Notes under the pieces: generated by a model
Told to the model about the DNA's origin: nothing
Seen by the model: only the letters and a program-made list of their open reading frames with translations
Databases searched by the model: none
Translations under genes and position numbers: made by a program
Assembly (NCBI GenBank): GCA_963609805.1
Contig: CAVDLN010000002.1
Span: 1-57,228 of the forward strand
Length of the DNA stretch: 57,228 nucleotides
From: Erysipelotrichaceae bacterium
GTDB taxonomy: Bacteria; Bacillota; Clostridia; Oscillospirales; CAG-272
Direction of reading: 5' to 3'
Shown: positions 917-9,813 of the stretch, in pieces
Layout: each line of letters opens with the position of its first letter
How positions within the stretch are numbered: position 1 is the stretch's first letter

Positions 917-1945
917 TCACAGCATCTCCGCGATATCGTATATCAGCCGTTCGGTTTTCTCCCAGCCGAGGCAGGGGTCGGTAATCGACTGGCCGAATAC
1001 CCCGCCGTCGGTCTTCTGGTTTCCGTCCACGAGGTAGCTCTCGATCATCAGGCCCTTGCAGAGGCGGCGGATGTCGGCGTTCTCCCGCATGGAGGTCAGC
1101 ACGTCGTGGGCTATGCGGATCTGCTCCTCATAGTGCTTGCCGGAGTTGGCGTGGTTGGTGTCGATGATGACGGCGGGATTCTCCAGCCCGGACTTTGCGT
1201 ACCGCTCGTTCAGACTGACCAGATCCTCATAGTGGTAGTTGGAGACCGTCTTGCCGTCCGTCGTCTGGTACCCCCGCAGGATGGCGTGCGCCAGCGGATT
1301 GCCGGTGCTCTCCACCTCCCAGCCGCGGTAGATGAAGGTGTGCGGATGGTGCGCCGCCGTGATGGCGTTCATCATGACCGATATGTCGCCGCCCGTCGGG
1401 TTTTTCAGCCCGACCGGGATATCCAGTCCGCTCGCCGTCAGGCGGTGCTGCTGGTTCTCCACGCTCCGCGCCCCCACGGCGACGTAGGAGAGCAGGTCGG
1501 AGAGGTAGCGGTGGTTGTCCGGGTACAGCATCTCGTCCGCGCTGGACATGCCGTAGTCCCGCAGCGCGCTCATGTGCAGCTGGCGGATGGCGATGATGCC
1601 GCGCATCATGTCGGGATGCCCGTTCGGGTCCGGCTGGTGCAGCATGCCCTTGTAGCCGTCGCCCGTCGTGCGGGGCTTGTTGGTGTAAATGCGCGGCACG
1701 ATGAGGATTTTATCCTGCACCTTGTCCGCCACGCGGCGCAGCCGTCCGATGTACTCCAGCACGGGCTCGCTCTTGTCCGCCGAGCACGGCCCTATGACCA
1801 GCAGGAATCTGTCGCTTTTCCCGGTGAAAATATCCCGTATTTCCGCGTCCCGCTGCTTCTTGACCGCCGCCATCTCCGGCGTGACCGGATACCACGCCTT
1901 CGTCTCCTGCGGAATCGGCAGCTTGCGGTAAAATTTCATGTTCAT
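917..1945 (-). CDS. aroF: 3-deoxy-7-phosphoheptulonate (DAHP) synthase, class I (AroF/G/H type)
   Basis: 342 aa. Contains LLVIGPCS...PRIYTNKPRTTGDGYKGML...HANSGK, typical of class I DAHP synthases. Last gene of the aromatic operon. Confidence 0.9.
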   Translation of the reverse strand: MNMKFYRKLPIPQETKAWYPVTPEMAAVKKQRDAEIRDIFTGKSDRFLLVIGPCSADKSEPVLEYIGRLRRVADKVQDKILIVPRIYTNKPRTTGDGYKGMLHQPDPNGHPDMMRGIIAIRQLHMSALRDYGMSSADEMLYPDNHRYLSDLLSYVAVGARSVENQQHRLTASGLDIPVGLKNPTGGDISVMMNAITAAHHPHTFIYRGWEVESTGNPLAHAILRGYQTTDGKTVSNYHYEDLVSLNERYAKSGLENPAVIIDTNHANSGKHYEEQIRIAHDVLTSMRENADIRRLCKGLMIESYLVDGNQKTDGGVFGQSITDPCLGWEKTERLIYDIAEML

Positions 1946-1955
1946 GGCTATACCC

Positions 1956-2876
1956 TCACTTTTCGTTGCATTGGTTTATTTTTGTCCGAACGGTCCCGGA
2001 CGGCTTGTCGAATTTCTCGCGCCGCTCGCCGGAGAGGCGCATCATGGCGCGCATGGTCTCCCTGTCCCCTTCCGCCAGCGCGGTGCGCAGCCTGTCAAAT
2101 ACCGCGCCGAACCTGTCCATCTCGCCCAGCAGCGCCTCCCGGTTGCACAGGAACAGCTCGCTCCACATTTCGTCGTTGATTCTGGCAATCCGCGTCAGGT
2201 CGCGGAAGGAATCGCCGGTAAAGGCCTCCAGCCCCGGCTGATCGTTGGCGCACATCAGCGCCACGGCAATGCAGTGCGTCAGCTGCGAGAGGAAAGCAAT
2301 CATGCGGTCATGCTCCGCGGCGGACAGCCGGCTGATGCGGTGAAAGCCCAGCAGCTCCCCCAGCTGCACGCACAGCGCGATCGCCTCCGGCGTGTTCCGC
2401 TCAGTCGGCACCACGATGTAGTTGGCGCCGTGGAACACGCTGTCGTCGCTGTGCTCGACACCGCTCCGCTCCCTGCCCGCCATCGGGTGCGCCGCGATGA
2501 ATTCCACCCCGTCCGGCATCAGATCCTGCATCCTGTCCACAATGCAGCCCTTCACGCCGGTGACATCCGTAACCAGCGTACCCGGCGAAAAGAGATGCCC
2601 GTTCTCCTCCGTCCATTCCAGCAGCGTATGCGGGTACAGGGCAAGCACCACGAGATCCGCCCGGGCGAACAGTCCGGGGTCCGCCTCCGTGCTGCCCCCG
2701 GCAAGGAATCCCTCCCGCACGGCATAGTCGATATCCTCCTGCCGCTTTGTTACGGCCCACACCGAAAAGCCCTGCTTTGTCAGCGCCTTTGCGTAGCTGC
2801 CGCCGATAAGTCCCAGCCCCACGATCAGCACACGCGCGCTGCTGTCCAGCCGCTCAAGTCTGAGTTTTTCTCCCAT
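1956..2876 (-). CDS. tyrA: prephenate dehydrogenase
   Basis: N-terminal Rossmann VLIVGLGLIGGSYAKAL, AHPMAG motif, C-terminal helical domain. Confidence 0.9.
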   Translation of the reverse strand: MGEKLRLERLDSSARVLIVGLGLIGGSYAKALTKQGFSVWAVTKRQEDIDYAVREGFLAGGSTEADPGLFARADLVVLALYPHTLLEWTEENGHLFSPGTLVTDVTGVKGCIVDRMQDLMPDGVEFIAAHPMAGRERSGVEHSDDSVFHGANYIVVPTERNTPEAIALCVQLGELLGFHRISRLSAAEHDRMIAFLSQLTHCIAVALMCANDQPGLEAFTGDSFRDLTRIARINDEMWSELFLCNREALLGEMDRFGAVFDRLRTALAEGDRETMRAMMRLSGERREKFDKPSGTVRTKINQCNEK

Positions 2877-2883
2877 TCCGTCC

Positions 2884-4128
2884 CTATGCCTCCTCCCCGG
2901 TGCGCACCGTTATTCCGAGAGATCCCAGCGCGTCAAAAAATTCCGGCATGCTTTTGGCGACGCATTCCGCACCGTCGATGCTGCCCCCCGTGCGGCACAG
3001 CAGCACCGCCAGCGACATGGCGACCCGATGGTCGTTGTGCGCGCACAGCACCCCGTCCGGCGCGTGCACGCCGCCCGGCTCCACCGTGATTTCGTTCTCC
3101 CCGACCGCTATGCGCACGCCGCAGCGCCGCAGTTCCTCCGCCATCGCCTCGCCGCGATCGCTCTCCTTGAGCCGCAGGCGGGCCGTGTCGCACAGCGTGC
3201 CGCCGTGATGCAGCGCCGCCACGACAAGCAGTATCGGCGCAAGATCCGGGCAGTCCGCCACCGACAGGCGGCACCGCTCCCGGCACAGCCTGTCCATATA
3301 CGCTCCGTACACACGGTCGCCCTGCGCCCCGTCGTCCGTATACCCCGTCATGGTTATGCTGCCGCCGAACGTCCGCATGGCGCCGAAGAAGGCGGCGGCG
3401 GACTGATCCGTCGGCACGCACAGCGCCGCCGCGGGCGCGTGTCCCGTCTGCCCGCCGGGGATGCCGTACTCCCGCCTGTCGGCGCCGTCGGCGCGGATCT
3501 CATACCCGAACAGGCGCAGCGCGTCCAGCGTCAGCCCGATGTAGGACGCGCTCTCCACCCGCCCCGTCAGCCGCAGGGTGCTGTCCCCTCTCAGGTGCGG
3601 CAGGGCAAACAGCAGACCCGACACAAACTGGCTGCTGATATTGCCGGGGAAGGAGAAGGTGCCGGGCCGCAGTCCGCCCCCCACCGTAACGCTTGTCTCC
3701 GTCCTCTCAAAGAGTATGCCCTGCCCGCGGCATATGTCCTCATACACGGACAGAGGCCGCGCGAACAGACGCCGCGCCCCCGTAAAGGTCACGCGGGATT
3801 CCGCTCCCCGCAGCAGGGCAAGCGGCAGCAGCAGCCGCAGGGTCGTTCCGCTCTCCCCGCAGTCGGCATGCGGCGCATCCGCCGGCACGGGGAAATCCGC
3901 CGGGGCGCATCCCCGCACCAGCGCGTCGGATCCCTCCTGCCGGATTTCCGCACCCATAGCCCGCAGGCAGCGCATCGTCGCGCGGATATCCGCGTTGTCC
4001 GGCAGTCCCCGCAGGCGCGTCTCGCCCGGGGTGACGGCAGCCGCCGTCAGGTACCGGTGCGCCACGCTCTTGGAAGCCGGCACGCACACCTCGCCCTGCG
4101 GAATGCCCGGAAGGATCGTCACGCGCAT
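2884..4128 (-). CDS. aroA: 3-phosphoshikimate 1-carboxyvinyltransferase (EPSP synthase)
   Basis: 414 aa. Contains VPASKSVAHR, LPDNADIRATM, HNDHRVAMSLAV. Its start overlaps the aroQ stop. Confidence 0.92.
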   Translation of the reverse strand: MRVTILPGIPQGEVCVPASKSVAHRYLTAAAVTPGETRLRGLPDNADIRATMRCLRAMGAEIRQEGSDALVRGCAPADFPVPADAPHADCGESGTTLRLLLPLALLRGAESRVTFTGARRLFARPLSVYEDICRGQGILFERTETSVTVGGGLRPGTFSFPGNISSQFVSGLLFALPHLRGDSTLRLTGRVESASYIGLTLDALRLFGYEIRADGADRREYGIPGGQTGHAPAAALCVPTDQSAAAFFGAMRTFGGSITMTGYTDDGAQGDRVYGAYMDRLCRERCRLSVADCPDLAPILLVVAALHHGGTLCDTARLRLKESDRGEAMAEELRRCGVRIAVGENEITVEPGGVHAPDGVLCAHNDHRVAMSLAVLLCRTGGSIDGAECVAKSMPEFFDALGSLGITVRTGEEA

Positions 4129-4613
4129 GGCGTTCCCTCCCCGCGCGCCAGCAGAAGATCCACCGCCTCGCAGTATCCCGCGAATCCGTGCCCCTTGATG
4201 CAGGCGACGCAGGCGGCGCGCACATAGCTGACGCGGCGGAATTCCTCCCTGGTATCCACATCCGATATATGCACCTCCACGGTCGGAATGCCGACCGCCT
4301 TGAGCGCGTCCAGCAGGGCGACCGACGTGTGGGTGTAGGCGGCGGGATTCAGCACGATCCCGTCATACACCCCCAGCGCGTCCTGTATGGCGTCCACCAG
4401 CGCGCCCTCGTGGTTGGACTGGAAAAACGCGATTTCAATCCCCCTCCGCTCTGCGTGCTCCCGCAGCATATCGCACAGCGACCGATAGGTCTGCGTCCCG
4501 TATATCTGCGGCTCGCGAACGCCCAGAAGATTCAGATTCGGCCCGTTGATGACCAGTATCCGGCGGACAGCCGCCTGTTTTGCATCCGTATGCTTTTCCG
4601 TATCTGTACTCAC
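4119..4613 (-). CDS. aroQ: type II 3-dehydroquinate dehydratase
   Basis: RILVINGPNLNLLGVREPQIYG...FQSNHEGALVD...NPAAYTHTSVA...HISD. The tracked ORF (to 5312) is over-extended. GTG at 4613 overlaps the upstream stop (GTGA) and has AGGAG about 9 nt upstream. Confidence 0.88.
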   Translation of the reverse strand: MSTDTEKHTDAKQAAVRRILVINGPNLNLLGVREPQIYGTQTYRSLCDMLREHAERRGIEIAFFQSNHEGALVDAIQDALGVYDGIVLNPAAYTHTSVALLDALKAVGIPTVEVHISDVDTREEFRRVSYVRAACVACIKGHGFAGYCEAVDLLLARGEGTPCA

Positions 4614-5890
4614 AGCAGATTTCTCCTTTCCTCCCGCTGCGCCGCAGCCGCCGAAAGCAGGCGGCCGGCACATTCCTTCGGACTGCCGTACACGGGGAAA
4701 ATCAGGTCGGCGGACTCCCGGTAGAGTGCCTCCCGCTCCCGGAACACCCGCTCCAGTGCCGCGCGGTCGCGCGTCAGCGGACGGCTGTCGGACGGCTCGA
4801 TGCTGTCCAGCGGCCTGTCCAGATAGACAAGACAGCCGTTGCGGCGCAGCGCCTTCACGTTCTCCTGCCGCGTGACGGCGCCGCCGCCCGTGGCGATGAT
4901 GCAGCCGGTTCCCGCCGCAAGCTCCCGCAGGACTGCCGTCTCCTCCCGCCGGAAGGCATCCTCCCCGTGCGCGGTGATATACGCGCCCGCCGGCATGCCG
5001 ACACGGGCGGCAAGCAGGGTATCGCTGTCGAAGAAGGGTTTTCCCGTCCGTGCCGCCAGCTGCCTGCCGAGCGTGCTTTTTCCGCTGCCCGGCATGCCGA
5101 CCAGCACGATGTTCTCCTTGCTGTCCCGCACGGAGGCAAAGACCTCCTCCGTCCGTTCGGTCAGGTCCGGCCGATCCAGAAACAGCGCCGCCGCGCAGGC
5201 CGCCTGCGCAACCAGCATATAGAGACCGCCCGCCGCGGGAATGCCGCGCTCCCTCGCCCGCCCGACAAAATCCGTCCGCAGCGGATGGTACACGGCGTCC
5301 GCCGCCCCGCACAGCCGCGGGAATCCGGCAGGGTCCGCGGGCAGTTCCCCGTCATGCGGGAACATGCCGACCGGCGTTGTGTTGACCAGAATCTCCACGT
5401 CCTCCCGCCGCCGGTTCAGCTCGTCATACCCGATGACGTCCTCTCCCTCCGGTCTGCGGGATACGCGGACGACCGATGCCGCCCCCTCCGCCCGCAGTAC
5501 GGCGCAGGCCGTTGAGGAGGTGCCCCCGGTCCCCAGCACCGCCGCATGTTTCCCCTTTGCGTCGATGCCGGCGCGGCGCAGCAGCATCCGCATGCCGTAG
5601 AAATCCGTATTGTAGCCGATCAGCTTTCCGTCCCGGCACAGAATCGTGTTGACCGCCCCGATGGCGCGCGCCGCGTCGTCAATCGCATCCAGATACGGGA
5701 TAACCGTCCGTTTGTAGGGAATGGTTACATTGATGCCGCTGAACGCGCGTGCCCGCAGGAAATCGCCGACCTCCTCCGGCCGCAGCTCACAGAGCCTGTA
5801 ATCGTATGTTCCCAGCATGGCGTGAATCTCCGCCGAGAAGCTGTGCCCGAGATGCTCCCCGATACAGCCGTATTCCTTGATGGTGTTCAT
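4610..5890 (-). CDS. aroE: fused shikimate dehydrogenase (N-terminal) / shikimate kinase (C-terminal)
   Basis: N-terminal half has AroE features (SFSAEIHN-like, GAVNT, LGTGGTS). C-terminal half has the shikimate kinase P-loop NIVLVGMPGSGKSTLGRQLA. One uninterrupted 426-aa frame. Confidence 0.88.
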   Translation of the reverse strand: MNTIKEYGCIGEHLGHSFSAEIHAMLGTYDYRLCELRPEEVGDFLRARAFSGINVTIPYKRTVIPYLDAIDDAARAIGAVNTILCRDGKLIGYNTDFYGMRMLLRRAGIDAKGKHAAVLGTGGTSSTACAVLRAEGAASVVRVSRRPEGEDVIGYDELNRRREDVEILVNTTPVGMFPHDGELPADPAGFPRLCGAADAVYHPLRTDFVGRARERGIPAAGGLYMLVAQAACAAALFLDRPDLTERTEEVFASVRDSKENIVLVGMPGSGKSTLGRQLAARTGKPFFDSDTLLAARVGMPAGAYITAHGEDAFRREETAVLRELAAGTGCIIATGGGAVTRQENVKALRRNGCLVYLDRPLDSIEPSDSRPLTRDRAALERVFREREALYRESADLIFPVYGSPKECAGRLLSAAAAQREERRNLL

Positions 5891-5899
5891 GCCTGCCTC

Positions 5900-7009
5900 C
5901 TATACCCGCAGCGCGTCGTCGCCGAAGCGCATCAGCAGAAGATCCGCCACGGTCAGCGCCGTCACCGCGTCGATGACGGGGCAGGCGCGCGGCGCTATGC
6001 AGGGATCATGCCTGCCGCGCACACGCAGCGTCACGTTCTCACCGCGGATAAAATCCACGCTGTCCTGCGGCAGCGCAATGGACGGGGTCGGCTTGACGGC
6101 GCAGCGGAACAGAACCGGCATTCCGTTCGTGATGCCGCCGCCGATGCCGCCGCCGCGGTTTCCCGCCGTGACAACCGCGCCGTCCGCCGAAATCCTGTAG
6201 GGGTCGTTGGACATGCTCCCGCGCATGCCCGCCAGCGAAAAGCCGTCGCCGAACTCCACGCCCTTGACGGCGGGAACCGAGAACAGTCCGTGCGCCAGCA
6301 TGCCCTCCGCCGTATCAAACCACGGCTCACCCAGCCCGGCGCAGAGCCCGGTTACGGCGGTTTCCGTCACACCGCCGACGCTGTCCCCGTCCGCGCGGGC
6401 GTCGAGAATGGCCTGCCGCATCCGCTCCCCCGCCTCCCCGTCAAGCACGGGAAAACCGGGTTCGTGCAGGCTGTCCAGCACCCCGTCGGAAACGGTTCCG
6501 TCCGCCTGCTGAAACGGCGCGTCCTTCACGCCCGCGCAGACGGCCAGATGTGTCCCGATCCGGATGCCCTTCCCACGCAGGGCGCCGCCGACGACAGCCC
6601 CGGCCGCGACCAGCGCCGCCGTGATTCTTCCGCTGAAGTGTCCGCCCCCGCGGTAGTCGGAAAAACCGTGGTACTTGCTGTAGGCGGGGTAGTCGCTGTG
6701 ACCGGGACGGGCGCAGCTGCGCATCTCGTCGTAGTCCCCGCTGTGCTGCTCCGCGTTGGGAATCCGTATGCAGAGCGGCGTCCCGGTGGTATACCCGTTG
6801 AACACGCCGCTTTCTATGACAAAGGGGTCTGCCTCCGCCCTTGCCGTCGCCGTCGGCCCCTGCGGGCGGCGGCGGGTCAGCTCCTTCGCAATACGCTCCC
6901 CGTCCACCGGGATGCCGGGCGTCAGGCCGTCCAGCACGGCGCCGATGCCGCTGCCGTGGCTCTCGCCGTACAGTGTCAGGGTCAGTGCGTTTCCGTATAT
7001 GTTTTTCAT
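5900..7009 (-). CDS. aroC: chorismate synthase
   Basis: GESHG near the N-terminus, RPGHSD, SGRITA, GGISNG-like GGGITNG. ATGA overlap with the aroB stop. Confidence 0.93.
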   Translation of the reverse strand: MKNIYGNALTLTLYGESHGSGIGAVLDGLTPGIPVDGERIAKELTRRRPQGPTATARAEADPFVIESGVFNGYTTGTPLCIRIPNAEQHSGDYDEMRSCARPGHSDYPAYSKYHGFSDYRGGGHFSGRITAALVAAGAVVGGALRGKGIRIGTHLAVCAGVKDAPFQQADGTVSDGVLDSLHEPGFPVLDGEAGERMRQAILDARADGDSVGGVTETAVTGLCAGLGEPWFDTAEGMLAHGLFSVPAVKGVEFGDGFSLAGMRGSMSNDPYRISADGAVVTAGNRGGGIGGGITNGMPVLFRCAVKPTPSIALPQDSVDFIRGENVTLRVRGRHDPCIAPRACPVIDAVTALTVADLLLMRFGDDALRV

Positions 7010-8031
7010 CGGAATGAAATTACCTCCCCGCAGGATTCCGTAATGGCATCAAGGCTTTCCTTCTGCAGCGAAAACCGCCCGATCTCCGGTACGCGGACCG
7101 TGGTGATGCCGTCCGCCGCGGCTTTCTTGTCGTGCGCCAGTGCCGCGCGGAACTCATTCTTCCCGCAGCGGAAGGCGGTCGGCAGATCATAGCGGTGCAG
7201 CAGCCGCAGAATGCGTCCGCGCACCTCCCCCTCCGTCAGGGCAAGCATGCCGATGCCGACGCACTCGCCGTGCAGCAGGGGGTACGGCTGCTCCGCGCCG
7301 ACGCTCTCCACGGCGTGCCCGACGGTGTGGCCGAAATTCAGCACGCGGCGCAGGCCGCCCTCCCGCTCGTCCGCCTCGACAACCGCCATCTTGATGCGCA
7401 GCGCCGCGCAGATCAGCTCCTCCGGCGGGATTCTGTCCCCCCCGTTCTCCAGACGCGCGAACATGGCGGCGTCCGATGTGGCGAACATTTTGATGATTTC
7501 CGCCATACCGCAGGCGTACTGCCGCGCGTCCAGCGTCAAAAGCACCTGCGGATCCGCCGCAACCGCCCGCGGCTGATAGAAAGTCCCGATGATGTTCTTG
7601 TACCCGCCGAAATCCACGGCGACCTTTCCCCCGACGGAGGAATCCACCATGGCAAGCAGCGTTGTCGGCAGATTGTAGAAATCAATCCCCCGCATATAGG
7701 TTGCCGCGACCATTCCGCCCAGATCCCCGATCACGCCGCCGCCGACCGCAACCACCGCGTCCCCGCGGTCAAAGTCCGCGTCCAGCATGGTTTTGAGAAC
7801 CGACAGCCATGTCTCCGGGCACTTGTTGTGCTCACCGGGCTCCAGCGTGACGATATGCGGCTCCGCGCACGCGGCCGCCACCGTCTGCGCGTAGGCGGCA
7901 GGCACGCCGCTGTCGGTCAGAATCAGGACACGGCGGCGGAGGGAAAACAGTTCCCCGACCCGCTCCAGCGCGCCGCTCTCCACCGTAATCGGGTAGCTGT
8001 CACTGCCCAGATGCATGGTAAGTGTGCTCAT
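7006..8031 (-). CDS. aroB: 3-dehydroquinate synthase
   Basis: GGGVIGDLGG, DSSVGGKVAVD, LNFGHTVGHA. Start taken at internal ATG 8031, which overlaps the pheA stop (ATGA). The longer tracked ORF start (8100) lies inside pheA. Confidence 0.88.
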   Translation of the reverse strand: MSTLTMHLGSDSYPITVESGALERVGELFSLRRRVLILTDSGVPAAYAQTVAAACAEPHIVTLEPGEHNKCPETWLSVLKTMLDADFDRGDAVVAVGGGVIGDLGGMVAATYMRGIDFYNLPTTLLAMVDSSVGGKVAVDFGGYKNIIGTFYQPRAVAADPQVLLTLDARQYACGMAEIIKMFATSDAAMFARLENGGDRIPPEELICAALRIKMAVVEADEREGGLRRVLNFGHTVGHAVESVGAEQPYPLLHGECVGIGMLALTEGEVRGRILRLLHRYDLPTAFRCGKNEFRAALAHDKKAAADGITTVRVPEIGRFSLQKESLDAITESCGEVISFR

Positions 8032-9179
8032 TCCCCGTCCTCCGTTCTGTTCAGTACCCGCTCCCCGGCAAAGCTGCCCAGCACGCGCACGCTGTTGCAT
8101 ATGCCGCTCAGCTCACGCAGCATGGCGGCGCCCGCCTCGGTTCCGAGATTGCCTTCCCCCTCGGCATAGAAGTAGTACGCCCAGTTTTCCACGCCCGTCG
8201 GGTGGCTCTTCAGGCATTTCAGGTTGTAGTCATGCCGACTGATGACGGATATGGCGTCCCCCAGAGAACCGGGGCGGTTGCTGCAGCTGAAAAGCAGGAC
8301 GAAATGCCCGTCGGACGGCTTGATTTCGCAGGCTGCCGGCGTAAAGACCGCGAACCGCGTGGTGTTGGTTTTCTGCTCGTTGATGTCGTTCTCCAGCACC
8401 TGCAGTCCGTACAGATCCGCCGTCTCCCGCGACGCAATGACGGCGACCTCCCGCCGCTCCCCGGCGGCAAGGTCACGGGCGGCGACCGCCGTATTGACGG
8501 CCGTTGTCTGTATCCATCCGCGCCTGCGCAGGAACGGCTGACACTGCGCCAGTGCCTGCGGGTGGCTGACGACCTCCCGGATTTCCGCCATCGCCACGCC
8601 CGGCTTTGCAAGCAGGCACTGGGACAGCGGCAGATCGTAAATGCCGCTGATGCTCAGCGAACCGCGCCACGCAAGATCCATAACCTGTCCGACGTCTCCG
8701 GCATAGCTGTTCTCAATCGGCAGGACGGCGCAGTGGCAGGCACCGCTCTCCACGCTCCGGTACGCGGTCGTGAAATCGGGGCAGGAAATCTTCTCTCCCG
8801 ACTTTCCGAAAATCCGCAGCGTCGCCACATGGGCGAACGCGCCCTCCACGCCGCTGTACGCGACCCGCTGTCCCCCGATCAGCAGCCGCTGATAGCGTTT
8901 GGATTCGGTGATTGCGCTTACCAGAAAGTTCTTGTAATAGGGGCGGTACGCGGGCGGCAGACGGTCCGTGTTGCGCGCGATCATCTCCTTCTCCCGCACA
9001 AGGTCCTCCACCGGCAGTCCGTGCTCCTCCTTGTAGGCGGCAACCACGGCCGCCGCCTGCATCCGCTGCGCGAACAGCTCCGCCATTTCCCTGTCTATGC
9101 GGTCTATGTCCCGCCGCGCTGCCGTGATATCGGATTCCGTCTCCTCCGCCGTGCCGGTTTTCTCTGCCGTTTCGTTCAT
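8028..9179 (-). CDS. pheA: bifunctional chorismate mutase / prephenate dehydratase (P-protein)
   Basis: N-terminal chorismate-mutase helix (RRDIDRIDREMAELFAQRM), PDT domain (VAYSGVEGAFAH...NTTRF), C-terminal ACT-like region. First gene of the operon. Confidence 0.9.
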   Translation of the reverse strand: MNETAEKTGTAEETESDITAARRDIDRIDREMAELFAQRMQAAAVVAAYKEEHGLPVEDLVREKEMIARNTDRLPPAYRPYYKNFLVSAITESKRYQRLLIGGQRVAYSGVEGAFAHVATLRIFGKSGEKISCPDFTTAYRSVESGACHCAVLPIENSYAGDVGQVMDLAWRGSLSISGIYDLPLSQCLLAKPGVAMAEIREVVSHPQALAQCQPFLRRRGWIQTTAVNTAVAARDLAAGERREVAVIASRETADLYGLQVLENDINEQKTNTTRFAVFTPAACEIKPSDGHFVLLFSCSNRPGSLGDAISVISRHDYNLKCLKSHPTGVENWAYYFYAEGEGNLGTEAGAAMLRELSGICNSVRVLGSFAGERVLNRTEDGE

Positions 9180-9226
9180 TTCCGTGTCCTCTTTCTTTCA
9201 TTTTCGTCCATGTTCGTCCGCCCCGC

Positions 9227-9280
9227 AAACAAAAAGGAAAGCCCGCGCGGATCCTTTCGGGATTTCCATGCGGGCTTTCC
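9227..9280 (-). terminator. intrinsic terminator inside the pheA leader (attenuator terminator)
   Basis: Minus-strand RNA GGAAAGCCCGC (9280-9270) ... GCGGGCUUUCC (9246-9236), followed by UUUUUGUUU (9235-9227). An inner extension GGAAAUCC/GGAUCC is also possible. Ends 47 nt before the pheA ATG. Confidence 0.8.
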
Positions 9281-9342
9281 GATATGTCGGGATTTGCGCG
9301 GGTGCTCCTGCCGATAGTACCATCAGAGGGAAGCACCGCCTA

Positions 9343-9414
9343 TCACGAGCAACGGGCAGAAAGACCGCCTTGATGGTAATAATAAAATCGAGCAGCTGTC
9401 ACTGTCATCTTCAT
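9343..9414 (-). CDS. candidate leader peptide MKMTVTAARFYYYHQGGLSARCS (23 aa) with a Phe-Tyr-Tyr-Tyr run
   Basis: ATG 9414-9412 is preceded by GGGAAGG (9428-9422) at 7-nt spacing. Codons UUU UAU UAU UAC occupy 9387-9376. Stop TGA at 9345-9343. Too short to appear in the ORF track. Confidence 0.55.
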   Translation of the reverse strand: MKMTVTAARFYYYHQGGLSARCS

Positions 9415-9460
9415 CACGGTGCCTTCCCTGTCCTTTCCTTCGGTTTATCAAGTCCCGTTT

Positions 9461-9489
9461 ATTATATTCCTTTTTCCCGCGTTTGTCAA
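9461..9489 (-). promoter_or_regulatory. sigma-A type promoter of the aromatic operon
   Basis: Minus strand TTGACA (9489-9484), 17-nt spacer, TATAAT (9466-9461). Confidence 0.8.
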
Positions 9490-9649
9490 GCCCCCGCAGC
9501 AGGGCTTTTTGCCGAAACTGCGGGGGCTTTGCTGGCGGTTTGTCGGCATTATGCGCCCTTCCCGTTACGGGTCGGGGATACTTCATGCGTCCTCCGTTAC
9601 CGTAAAGTCGAACGAACTCACGCTGCCGTCCGCGGATGAGAGTAAAAGT

Positions 9650-9687
9650 AAAAAATAAAGCCTTCCCGAACTCTGTCCGGGAAGGCT
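9650..9687 (-). terminator. intrinsic terminator downstream of tRNA-Gln
   Basis: Minus-strand stem AGCCUUCCCG / CGGGAAGGCU (9687-9659), followed by UUUAUUUUUU. Confidence 0.8.
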
Positions 9688-9689
9688 TT

Positions 9690-9765
9690 TGGCTGCGGCA
9701 CAAGGATTCGAACCTTGGGAATGACGGAGTCAGAGTCCGTTGCCTTACCGCTTGGCGATGCCGCA
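9690..9765 (-). tRNA. tRNA-Gln (anticodon CUG), CCA encoded
   Basis: Reverse complement is UGCGGCAUCGCCAAGCGGUAAGGCAACGGACUCUGACUCCGUCAUUCCCAAGGUUCGAAUCCUUGUGCCGCAGCCA. It has a 7-bp acceptor stem with U1-A72, anticodon loop CUCUGAC, and T-loop UUCGAAU. Confidence 0.93.
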
Positions 9766-9784
9766 TTGCTAACCAACGGACGGT

Positions 9785-9813
9785 ATTATAGCAGGTTTTT
9801 ATGTGTTTGTCAA
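9785..9813 (-). promoter_or_regulatory. promoter of tRNA-Gln
   Basis: Minus strand TTGACA (9813-9808), 17 nt, TATAAT (9790-9785). About 20 nt upstream of the tRNA 5' end. Confidence 0.8.

Follow-up and report, generated by a model that had tools for sequence, protein, structure and literature searches.

A predicted leader-peptide attenuator with a Tyr codon run upstream of the aromatic amino acid operon in uncultured gut Clostridia

How do uncultured Clostridia of the gut decide when to express their genes for aromatic amino acid biosynthesis? This question is raised by a short leader region upstream of pheA on the minus strand of a 57,228-nucleotide stretch of DNA from an Erysipelotrichaceae bacterium (contig CAVDLN010000002.1, assembly GCA_963609805.1), the whole of which we call the window. 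A first-pass annotation, made from the letters of the sequence alone, had proposed that a short open reading frame (ORF) with a run of Phe and Tyr codons, together with a following intrinsic terminator, forms a ribosome-mediated attenuator that senses both amino acids. Based on comparisons among homologous leaders and on RNA modeling, we conclude with a probability of about 0.85 that the element is a ribosome-mediated leader-peptide transcription attenuator of the aromatic operon, which responds mainly to Tyr-tRNA charging and receives a secondary input from its one Phe codon. If so, these bacteria most likely switch on the operon only when charged Tyr or Phe tRNAs are in short supply.

The promoter, Shine–Dalgarno (SD) sequence, ORF, aromatic codon run, terminator arms, U-tract, and pheA start codon are all present on the minus strand as the first-pass annotation had described them (Table 1). 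The promoter is a complete match to the sigma-70 consensus, whereas shuffled versions of the region yield 0.3 promoter-like sites, and a promoter of the form TTGAC[AT]-N16-18-TA[ACT]AAT is present in every homologous leader processed. Transcription is inferred to start near position 9454, about 7 nucleotides past the promoter, and the attenuated transcript is predicted to be ~220–228 nucleotides long. A GTG codon at 9417–9415 lies in frame with the leader ORF, and a gap of ~165 nucleotides separates the end of the ORF from pheA.

The same arrangement recurs in related genomes. A protein-guided scan of one genome per species yielded 12 loci (PheA 43–89% identical), all of which come from Oscillospiraceae- or Clostridia-type metagenome-assembled genomes (MAGs), including Ruminococcus sp. 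CAG:382 and Clostridium sp. CAG:448. In 10 of these 12 genomes, a consensus promoter, a purine-rich box, an ORF of 21–26 codons, and a terminator lie upstream of pheA, and the ORFs share the core RFYYYHQ(G/S)GLS. A scan of metagenomes with a DNA pattern gave 47 matches, 43 of which are true leaders, each preceding a pheA orthologue (PheA identity 54–89%). The other four (L015, L021, L024, and L033) are located within coding sequence and were set aside as chance matches. The arrangement is far beyond chance, with pheA orthologues preceded by it in 10 of 12 genomes and on 43 metagenome contigs. Orthologous leaders thus retain both the mini-ORF and its aromatic run, in keeping with the first-pass annotation. 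The carrier loci range in GC content from 0.39 to 0.63. A search with the PheA protein did not widen the phylogenetic range, in that its best 120 matches are close relatives only (85–99% identity). For the analyses that follow, 16 nonredundant leaders were aligned (alignment A1).

Conservation of this kind might also be expected if a trans-acting factor reads the leader RNA, such as a TRAP-like protein on UAU/UUA repeats or the ligand of a small-molecule riboswitch, with the mini-ORF being incidental or auxiliary. A 35-nucleotide core is indeed conserved at the nucleotide level to a very high degree, beyond the needs of the peptide, the triplet repeat UAUUAUUA is expandable, and the leader includes a long structured domain (z down to −5.7). 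Nevertheless, an AUG in the frame of the Phe-Tyr-Tyr-Tyr codons, with purine-rich sequence upstream, is kept in 16 of 16 leaders, which is true of no other frame (1 of 16 for each). Insertions and deletions come in multiples of three, and the distance from the (A/G)UGAUG start, where present, to CGA-UUU is 18, 21, or 27 nucleotides. SD-like motifs are located 4–14 nucleotides upstream of the in-frame AUG in 13 of the 16 lineages. In addition, the conserved bases outside the Phe and Tyr codons are accounted for by the terminator and by two other pairings described below (H1 and AT:T5′), and the interior of the structured domain varies freely, with no conserved multihelix junction or pocket of the riboswitch type.

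Searches for known RNA families also argue against a trans-acting factor. At the gathering threshold, Rfam 15 reports only tRNA over the window, with no T-box (RF00230), riboswitch, or known leader, and at E ≤ 10 no T-box, Phe_leader (RF01859), Leu/phe leader (RF01743), His, Trp, or Leu leader, or other meaningful match is seen over positions 9100–9800. The sole match to a leader family is Thr_leader over the terminator hairpin (16.7 bits versus a gathering score of 55, E = 2), which is noise. Likewise, no Rfam family, T-box included, is found in four homologous loci (L003, L009, L012, and L014). The covariance-model match that the first-pass annotation had named among the results that would refute its proposal is absent from this search. 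Given these findings, we regard control by a trans-acting factor as very unlikely.

The codon run itself suggests which amino acid matters most. Of the dual Phe/Tyr signal proposed earlier, it holds that both codons are present and that the operon includes both pheA and tyrA, but the signal appears to be mainly Tyr, with three to five Tyr codons across lineages and always a single Phe codon. Within the peptide, RFYYY is fixed whereas both ends vary freely, and variants of the core include NRFYYYHHCGLSAF, RFYYYRQSGLS, and RFYYYHRSGLS. Where the RNA is unpaired, codons vary nonsynonymously (Q/H/R, then G/S/C), which argues that the constraint at these positions is on the RNA and not on the peptide.

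Two closely related lineages, L011 (2789–2830) and L017 (3685–3720), carry five and four Tyr codons, respectively, versus the usual three, by expansion of a TAT triplet. This suggests that the regulatory run changes length on short time scales.

The RNA downstream of the codon run is predicted to form two competing structures. The terminator has an 11-base-pair GC-rich stem (−21.3 kcal/mol; −30.6 kcal/mol for the whole hairpin) capped by inner stems (9268–9265:9251–9248 and 9262–9260:9254–9252), and a simple terminator scan misses it because of a loop rule of 3–8 nucleotides. Over alignment A1, 93.7% of the cells in this helix are paired, four pairs show compensatory changes, and 0 of 500 shuffles reach the observed value. 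Its 5′ arm (T5′) can instead pair with a strand inside the 3′ part of the ORF, here termed AT, as the first-pass annotation had noticed; 10 of 11 positions pair in the window (−12.4 kcal/mol). Across the 16 leaders, 85.8% of the cells in AT:T5′ are paired, 7 of 500 shuffles reach the observed value, and position 5 is always mismatched. In L003, two pairs of AT:T5′ have changed in a compensatory manner, and the 3′ terminator arm (T3′) follows. Since the terminator and the antiterminator share the 5′ arm, they are mutually exclusive, a point on which the earlier proposal depended and for which there is now covariation in the terminator and compensatory change in one lineage of the antiterminator.

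The antiterminator is more extensive than this basal pairing. In all 12 distinct lineages tested, the RNA from AT to T5′ folds as a single long imperfect hairpin (z −1.9 to −5.7) whose interior differs in sequence and length; in the window it is a multihelix structure of ~100 nucleotides (−39.0 kcal/mol). An apical hairpin occurs in all lineages with differing sequences, and the pairing GGUGCUUC:GGAGCACC of the window is replaced in L001 by the compensatory GGCGUUUC:GGAACGCC. This bears on a segment just past the stop codon (9339–9329), for which two roles had been suggested. As a conserved second antiterminator strand it does not hold up, as its sequence is specific to a clade comprising the window, L001, and L002, where it forms an inner helix of the long hairpin. 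Its alternative pairing with GGAGCACC (9308–9301), on the other hand, is the conserved role of the segment.

The great predicted stability of the terminator relative to the antiterminator invites the thought that there is no regulated switch at all, and that the hairpin is a leaky constitutive terminator or an insulator after a nearby tRNA-Gln gene, with the ORF being a conserved small protein gene or an enhancer of pheA translation. One homologous locus, L009, even retains the promoter and terminator without the ORF. On this explanation, however, the complementarity of AT to T5′ would have no role despite being kept via compensatory change. A promoter separates the leader from the tRNA gene, which is followed by a terminator of its own. 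Moreover, the peptide termini are unconstrained, and the distance between the ORF and pheA is too great for translational coupling. We therefore consider the absence of a switch to be exceedingly improbable.

Two further pairings, both missed by the first-pass annotation, might hold AT away from T5′. The first is a helix, H1, formed by CCAUCA after the Tyr run and UGAUGG after the stop codon (H1a:H1b, −9.4 kcal/mol in the window). Its six-base-pair core is paired in 16 of 16 leaders, where one change, in L010, is compensatory and two others produce wobble pairs, and RNAalifold recovers the helix unguided. The sequence UGAYGG is invariant while its partner and register in the apical helix H3 vary between lineages, which points to a second role for this sequence, namely H1. 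A further ORF beginning at the AUG within UGAUGG was considered and discarded, as L010 carries ACG at this place. The strands H1a, AT, H1b, and T5′ are arranged in pseudoknot order with a gap of two nucleotides between H1a and AT, and consequently H1 and AT:T5′ should exclude each other. The second pairing involves the 5′ untranslated region (UTR), whose purine box and SD are complementary to AT and the bases that follow. In ribosome-free RNA made before T5′, all 16 leaders are predicted to form a 5′ hairpin that joins the SD/start region with CCAUCA and the 3′ half of AT, and in each the box pairs with CUUUCUG(Y)CC. Owing to indels, cognate and noncognate duplexes were compared in place of column covariation, and the cognate 5′ region beats every noncognate one in 9 of 16 leaders, which is moderate support. 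We propose this 5′ UTR:AT pairing as a candidate off state.

To place the ribosome on these structures, we assumed a footprint from A−18 to A+12 relative to the first A-site base, taken from general knowledge of bacterial footprints and toeprints, and scanned its position along the 16 leaders with transcripts cut just before the terminator 3′ arm. With this modeled footprint, AT:T5′ takes mean probabilities of 0.72 and 0.83 on the two Tyr codons that precede the last one; the value falls to 0.21 on the last Tyr and is ~0 at every codon from there to the stop (+1 to +11). The last codons that permit the antiterminator are thus Phe-Tyr-Tyr, three positions at which the footprint also covers region 1 (H1a). 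In the variant with five Tyr codons, the permissive codons move to the third and fourth Tyr. A ribosome at the stop codon would cover part of AT in variants with short ORFs, and in those with long ORFs it would lie further into the 5′ strand of the antiterminator, beside or on UGAUGG. The ribosome model of the first-pass annotation therefore stands insofar as the modeled footprints behave as it proposed, but it needs amendment for long-ORF homologues, where the ribosome at the stop codon is inside the antiterminator 5′ strand and not on AT. H1 reaches a probability of at least 0.5 in 10 of 16 leaders, and only before T5′ exists. Equilibrium folding of the complete leader with ribosome masks was uninformative, with the terminator always winning.

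These predictions can be combined into a mechanism. Transcription would begin at the consensus promoter and a ribosome would load on the 23-codon ORF. Region 1 (UACCAUCA) would lie right after the Tyr run; region 2 would begin with GCGGUCUUUCU (AT), take in the second half of the ORF and its stop codon, and extend to UGAUGG; region 3 would be the returning strand that ends in GGAAAGCCCGC; and region 4 would be GCGGGCUUUCC with the U-tract. The modeling shows that region 3 can be used in two ways, making up a single long antiterminator hairpin with region 2 and the terminator with region 4. When Tyr (or Phe) is scarce, the ribosome would stall with UUU or either of the UAU codons in its A site, such that its footprint covers region 1, ends just before AT, and parts AT from the 5′ UTR. 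Region 2 could then zip with the emerging region 3, which would block the terminator and allow RNA polymerase to read into pheA. When supply is good, the ribosome would reach the stop codon and occupy or unwind the antiterminator 5′ strand, whereupon T5′ would pair with T3′ and transcription would end near 9235–9227. Without a ribosome, either H1 or the pairing of the SD region with AT may keep AT from T5′ and lead to termination by default, although this last step is less certain.

Several observations weigh against this interpretation. Every carrier is either an uncultured MAG or a metagenome contig. The covariation of AT:T5′ and of H1 comes from single lineages (L003 and L010, respectively), as the core hardly varies, and the H1a change in L010 is also tolerated by an alternative local pairing. 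The SD is weak or absent in L001, L011, and L017 when sought 4–14 nucleotides from the start codon. The dominance of the complete terminator at equilibrium means that the switch has to work kinetically. Ribosome-free RNA that ends before T3′ prefers the antiterminator in about half of the lineages, also when the 5′ region is masked, and default termination without a ribosome is hence an assumption based on the order of synthesis. In Bacillus subtilis, transcription and translation are uncoupled; if this also applies to the carriers, a classical attenuator would depend on some mechanism of pausing. The amino acid that is sensed also cannot be read from the codons with certainty, as only Phe mattered for a leader of Corynebacterium glutamicum that has both codons (aroR, discussed below). 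Finally, the invariance of CGA-UUU-UAU-UAU exceeds what the logic of hungry codons needs.

This last point deserves a closer look. Throughout A1, CGA-UUU-UAU-UAU-UA(C/U) is invariant at the nucleotide level despite a GC range of 39–63%, yet these are minority codons in the operon, where UUU serves for 28 of 84 Phe, UAU for 21 of 75 Tyr, and CGA for 1 of 218 Arg residues. Predicted RNA pairings give no consistent reason for the fixed bases. Furthermore, the Tyr-Tyr-Tyr-His(-His) codons are all read by tRNAs that carry queuosine at position 34. One explanation for these features is that the leader holds a programmed stalling cassette that acts on the same downstream switch, whether by ligand-induced arrest of a nascent RFYYYH peptide, as with TnaC, or through a codon string, made up of the rare CGA and then NAU/NAC codons for queuosine-modified tRNAs, that reports tRNA modification or decoding speed and not Tyr-tRNA charging. 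Arrest peptides such as TnaC and SecM have conserved residues and a fixed spacing to the arrest or stop site, whereas here YYY is 10–13 codons away from the stop, and variation in the residues after YYYH coincides exactly with unconstrained parts of the RNA. The number of Tyr codons varies as well, and charging-dependent attenuation is classically recognized by just such a series of codons cognate to the end product. Rare leader codons are known to affect sensitivity, a precedent being the four rare CUA codons in the Salmonella leu leader. A stalling cassette in place of charging is thus quite improbable, and the invariant RFYYYH leaves a weak version of the nascent-peptide arrest idea. It is unlikely, though somewhat less so, that CGA-UUU-UAU-UAU-UAY-CAU, with its very rare Arg codon and the four or five successive codons for queuosine-modified tRNAs (Tyr, His), is a decoding-sensitive stalling cassette that ties the aromatic pathway to tRNA modification, decoding speed, or RFYYYH arrest in addition to Tyr-tRNA charging. 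Were that true, and were transcription and translation uncoupled as in Bacillus, the leader would show a classical attenuator working without tight coupling.

The Arg codon that precedes FYYY (9388–9390) is CGA in every homologue.

Charging-dependent attenuation by a leader peptide, which we favor for this element, is a known mechanism. Leader-peptide attenuators are classical in Proteobacteria, as exemplified by trpL, pheL, hisL, and leuL of Escherichia coli. Like these, the leader described here has a short ORF that carries several product codons in a row, four RNA regions with predicted counterparts of helices 2:3 (antiterminator) and 3:4 (terminator with U-tract) and a candidate for helix 1:2, and regulatory codons placed such that a stalled ribosome would mask region 1. 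Its weak, weak, and strong helix energies (−9.4, −12.4, and −21.3 kcal/mol) follow the same hierarchy as the 1:2, 2:3, and 3:4 helices of E. coli trpL. Unlike the proteobacterial leaders, to which it has no sequence or covariance-model similarity, it carries a Tyr-dominated F-Y-Y-Y run, resides in the class Clostridia, and uses as its antiterminator a multihelix hairpin in which the 3′ half of the ORF supplies the 5′ strand. AT is also flanked by both strands of the candidate helix 1:2, so that exclusion would be topological, and there is an extra predicted SD:AT pairing.

Precedents outside Proteobacteria make the leader less unusual for a Clostridia-type genome than the first-pass annotation had suggested, even though Proteobacteria are indeed the classical hosts. 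In C. glutamicum, by the account of Neshat et al. (2014) relayed in PMC11802643, the aroR leader with Phe-Tyr-Phe precedes the aroF operon, and experiments revealed a response to Phe but none to Tyr. Compared by that description, the two systems share a mixed Phe/Tyr leader peptide and ribosome-mediated attenuation of aromatic genes; they differ in that aroR belongs to Actinobacteria, has aroF and not pheA as its first gene, and has three regulatory codons with a Phe majority. An Acholeplasma upstream ORF (uORF), uORFC-13-1, has been proposed to act through Phe codons before aroF and has its own promoter, ribosome-binding site, start codon, and an intrinsic terminator immediately after it (PMC8632094). 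Again by description, it resembles the present leader in that an aromatic-codon uORF and a terminator precede a gene of the shikimate pathway and that the host lineage is related to Firmicutes, but a U-run coding for Phe takes the place of the Tyr run, and both gene and taxon are different. Among Firmicutes, leader peptides for His have been described for hisS/hisZ of the Bacillus cereus group (PMC2965389) and for the his operons of Peptostreptococcaceae and Erysipelotrichales (PMC9413887), and the Leu/phe leader RF01743 is known from Lactococcus (PMC2864571). These are likewise leader-peptide attenuators that occur sporadically in Firmicutes in place of T-boxes, but they serve other amino acids and operons and are unrelated in sequence, and RF01743 does not match our leader. 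No Tyr-run leader, and no account of the present motif in Clostridia, was found in the literature searched, whose coverage is incomplete. Because precedents exist in the His leaders of Firmicutes, in the uORF before aroF of Acholeplasma, and in aroR of C. glutamicum, we view the element as a previously uncatalogued family of a known mechanism, although the phylum is an unusual one for it.

If our interpretation is correct, this family adds an uncatalogued leader-peptide attenuator to Clostridia, specifically to Oscillospiraceae-type gut bacteria, where T-boxes and protein regulators have been thought dominant. As far as the literature searches reached, it would also be the first family regulated chiefly by a Tyr run. 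Gut metagenomes of humans and animals are rich in its carriers, and the element therefore bears on the aromatic amino acid output of gut commensals. It could serve as a compact test case for ribosome-mediated attenuation in Firmicutes-type cells, where the coupling of transcription and translation has been questioned. Annotation as an RNA/uORF family is merited, given that the leader currently appears to cause N-terminal over-extension of pheA. Many of the PheA orthologues in databases (P0004–P0120) are called at 416 amino acids versus 384, and the longer calls probably represent N-terminal over-extension into the leader/terminator region.

Table 1. Positions of the leader elements and the downstream operon in the window
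Feature	Position	Strand	Remarks
−35 hexamer TTGACA	9484..9489	−	Sequence reading and promoter scan
−10 hexamer TATAAT	9461..9466	−	17-nucleotide spacer to −35; promoter scan 12/12
Purine-rich 5′ box GGAAAGGACAGG	9427..9438	−	Conserved in most lineages (alignment A1)
SD-like GGGAAGG of the mini-ORF	9422..9428	−	7 nucleotides before ATG 9414
Leader ORF MKMTVTAARFYYYHQGGLSARCS, 23 codons + stop	9343..9414	−	ATG 9414, TGA 9345–9343
Invariant CGA-UUU-UAU-UAU-UAC (Arg-Phe-Tyr-Tyr-Tyr)	9376..9390	−	Regulatory codons 9387–9376
Region 1 (H1a) UACCAUCA	9371..9378	−	Predicted to pair with 9325–9318; under the modeled footprint when the ribosome stalls on F, Y1, or Y2
AT strand GCGGUCUUUCU	9358..9368	−	Inside ORF; base of antiterminator hairpin and start of region 2; pairs with 9280–9270
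Apical part of antiterminator	9296..9339	−	H2, 9339–9329 with 9308–9296; H3, CUGAUG 9326–9321 with 9316–9311
H1b UGAUGGUA	9318..9325	−	Partner of region 1; also 5′ strand of H3
Region 3 (T5′) GGAAAGCCCGC	9270..9280	−	Common to antiterminator and terminator
Region 4 (T3′) GCGGGCUUUCC	9236..9246	−	Inner terminator stems at 9268–9248
U-tract UUUUUGUUU	9227..9235	−	U-tract also after the stem in homologues
pheA ATG	9179	−	Sequence reading
Regulated operon: pheA (9179–8028), aroB, aroC, aroE/aroK fusion, aroA, tyrA, DAHP synthase (aroF)	917..9179	−	NCBIfam assignments

The first gene of the operon, pheA, encodes chorismate mutase/prephenate dehydratase according to NCBIfam. Further downstream, a single ORF of 426 amino acids (4610–5890, minus strand) joins aroE (residues ~1–255) to aroK (residues ~255–415). 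No further copies of the leader and no other mini-ORFs with an aromatic run are present within the window.

Upstream of the leader lies the gene for tRNA-Gln (anticodon CUG, ARAGORN) at 9690–9765 on the minus strand, with a terminator-like hairpin directly behind it (9689–9657, minus strand). Because the tRNA gene has this hairpin of its own, the aro leader is regarded as a separate transcription unit. A GC-rich hairpin at 9490–9527 (minus strand), which pairs GCCCCCGCAG (9527–9518) with CUGCGGGGGC (9499–9490), abuts the −35 box of the leader and has no U-tract. This hairpin may act as an insulator or as a weak terminator behind the tRNA gene, or may represent a repeat element.

Two homologous loci depart from the common layout. 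In L009 (~2840–3000; PheA 63% identical), no FYYY ORF accompanies the consensus promoter and the terminator-like hairpin, GCAAGCCCGCC...GGCGGGCUUUGC-GUUUUU, and another ORF, MPVMRASPPAHPPGSALAGFAFF..., crosses the hairpin; this locus may hold a degenerate or different control element. L051 (8192–8554, minus strand) has a different terminator, AAGGCUUGC...GCAAGUCUUUUAUUAU, that through G-U pairs is still complementary to the AT strand of the same leader, and ~270 additional nucleotides lie ahead of its pheA gene.

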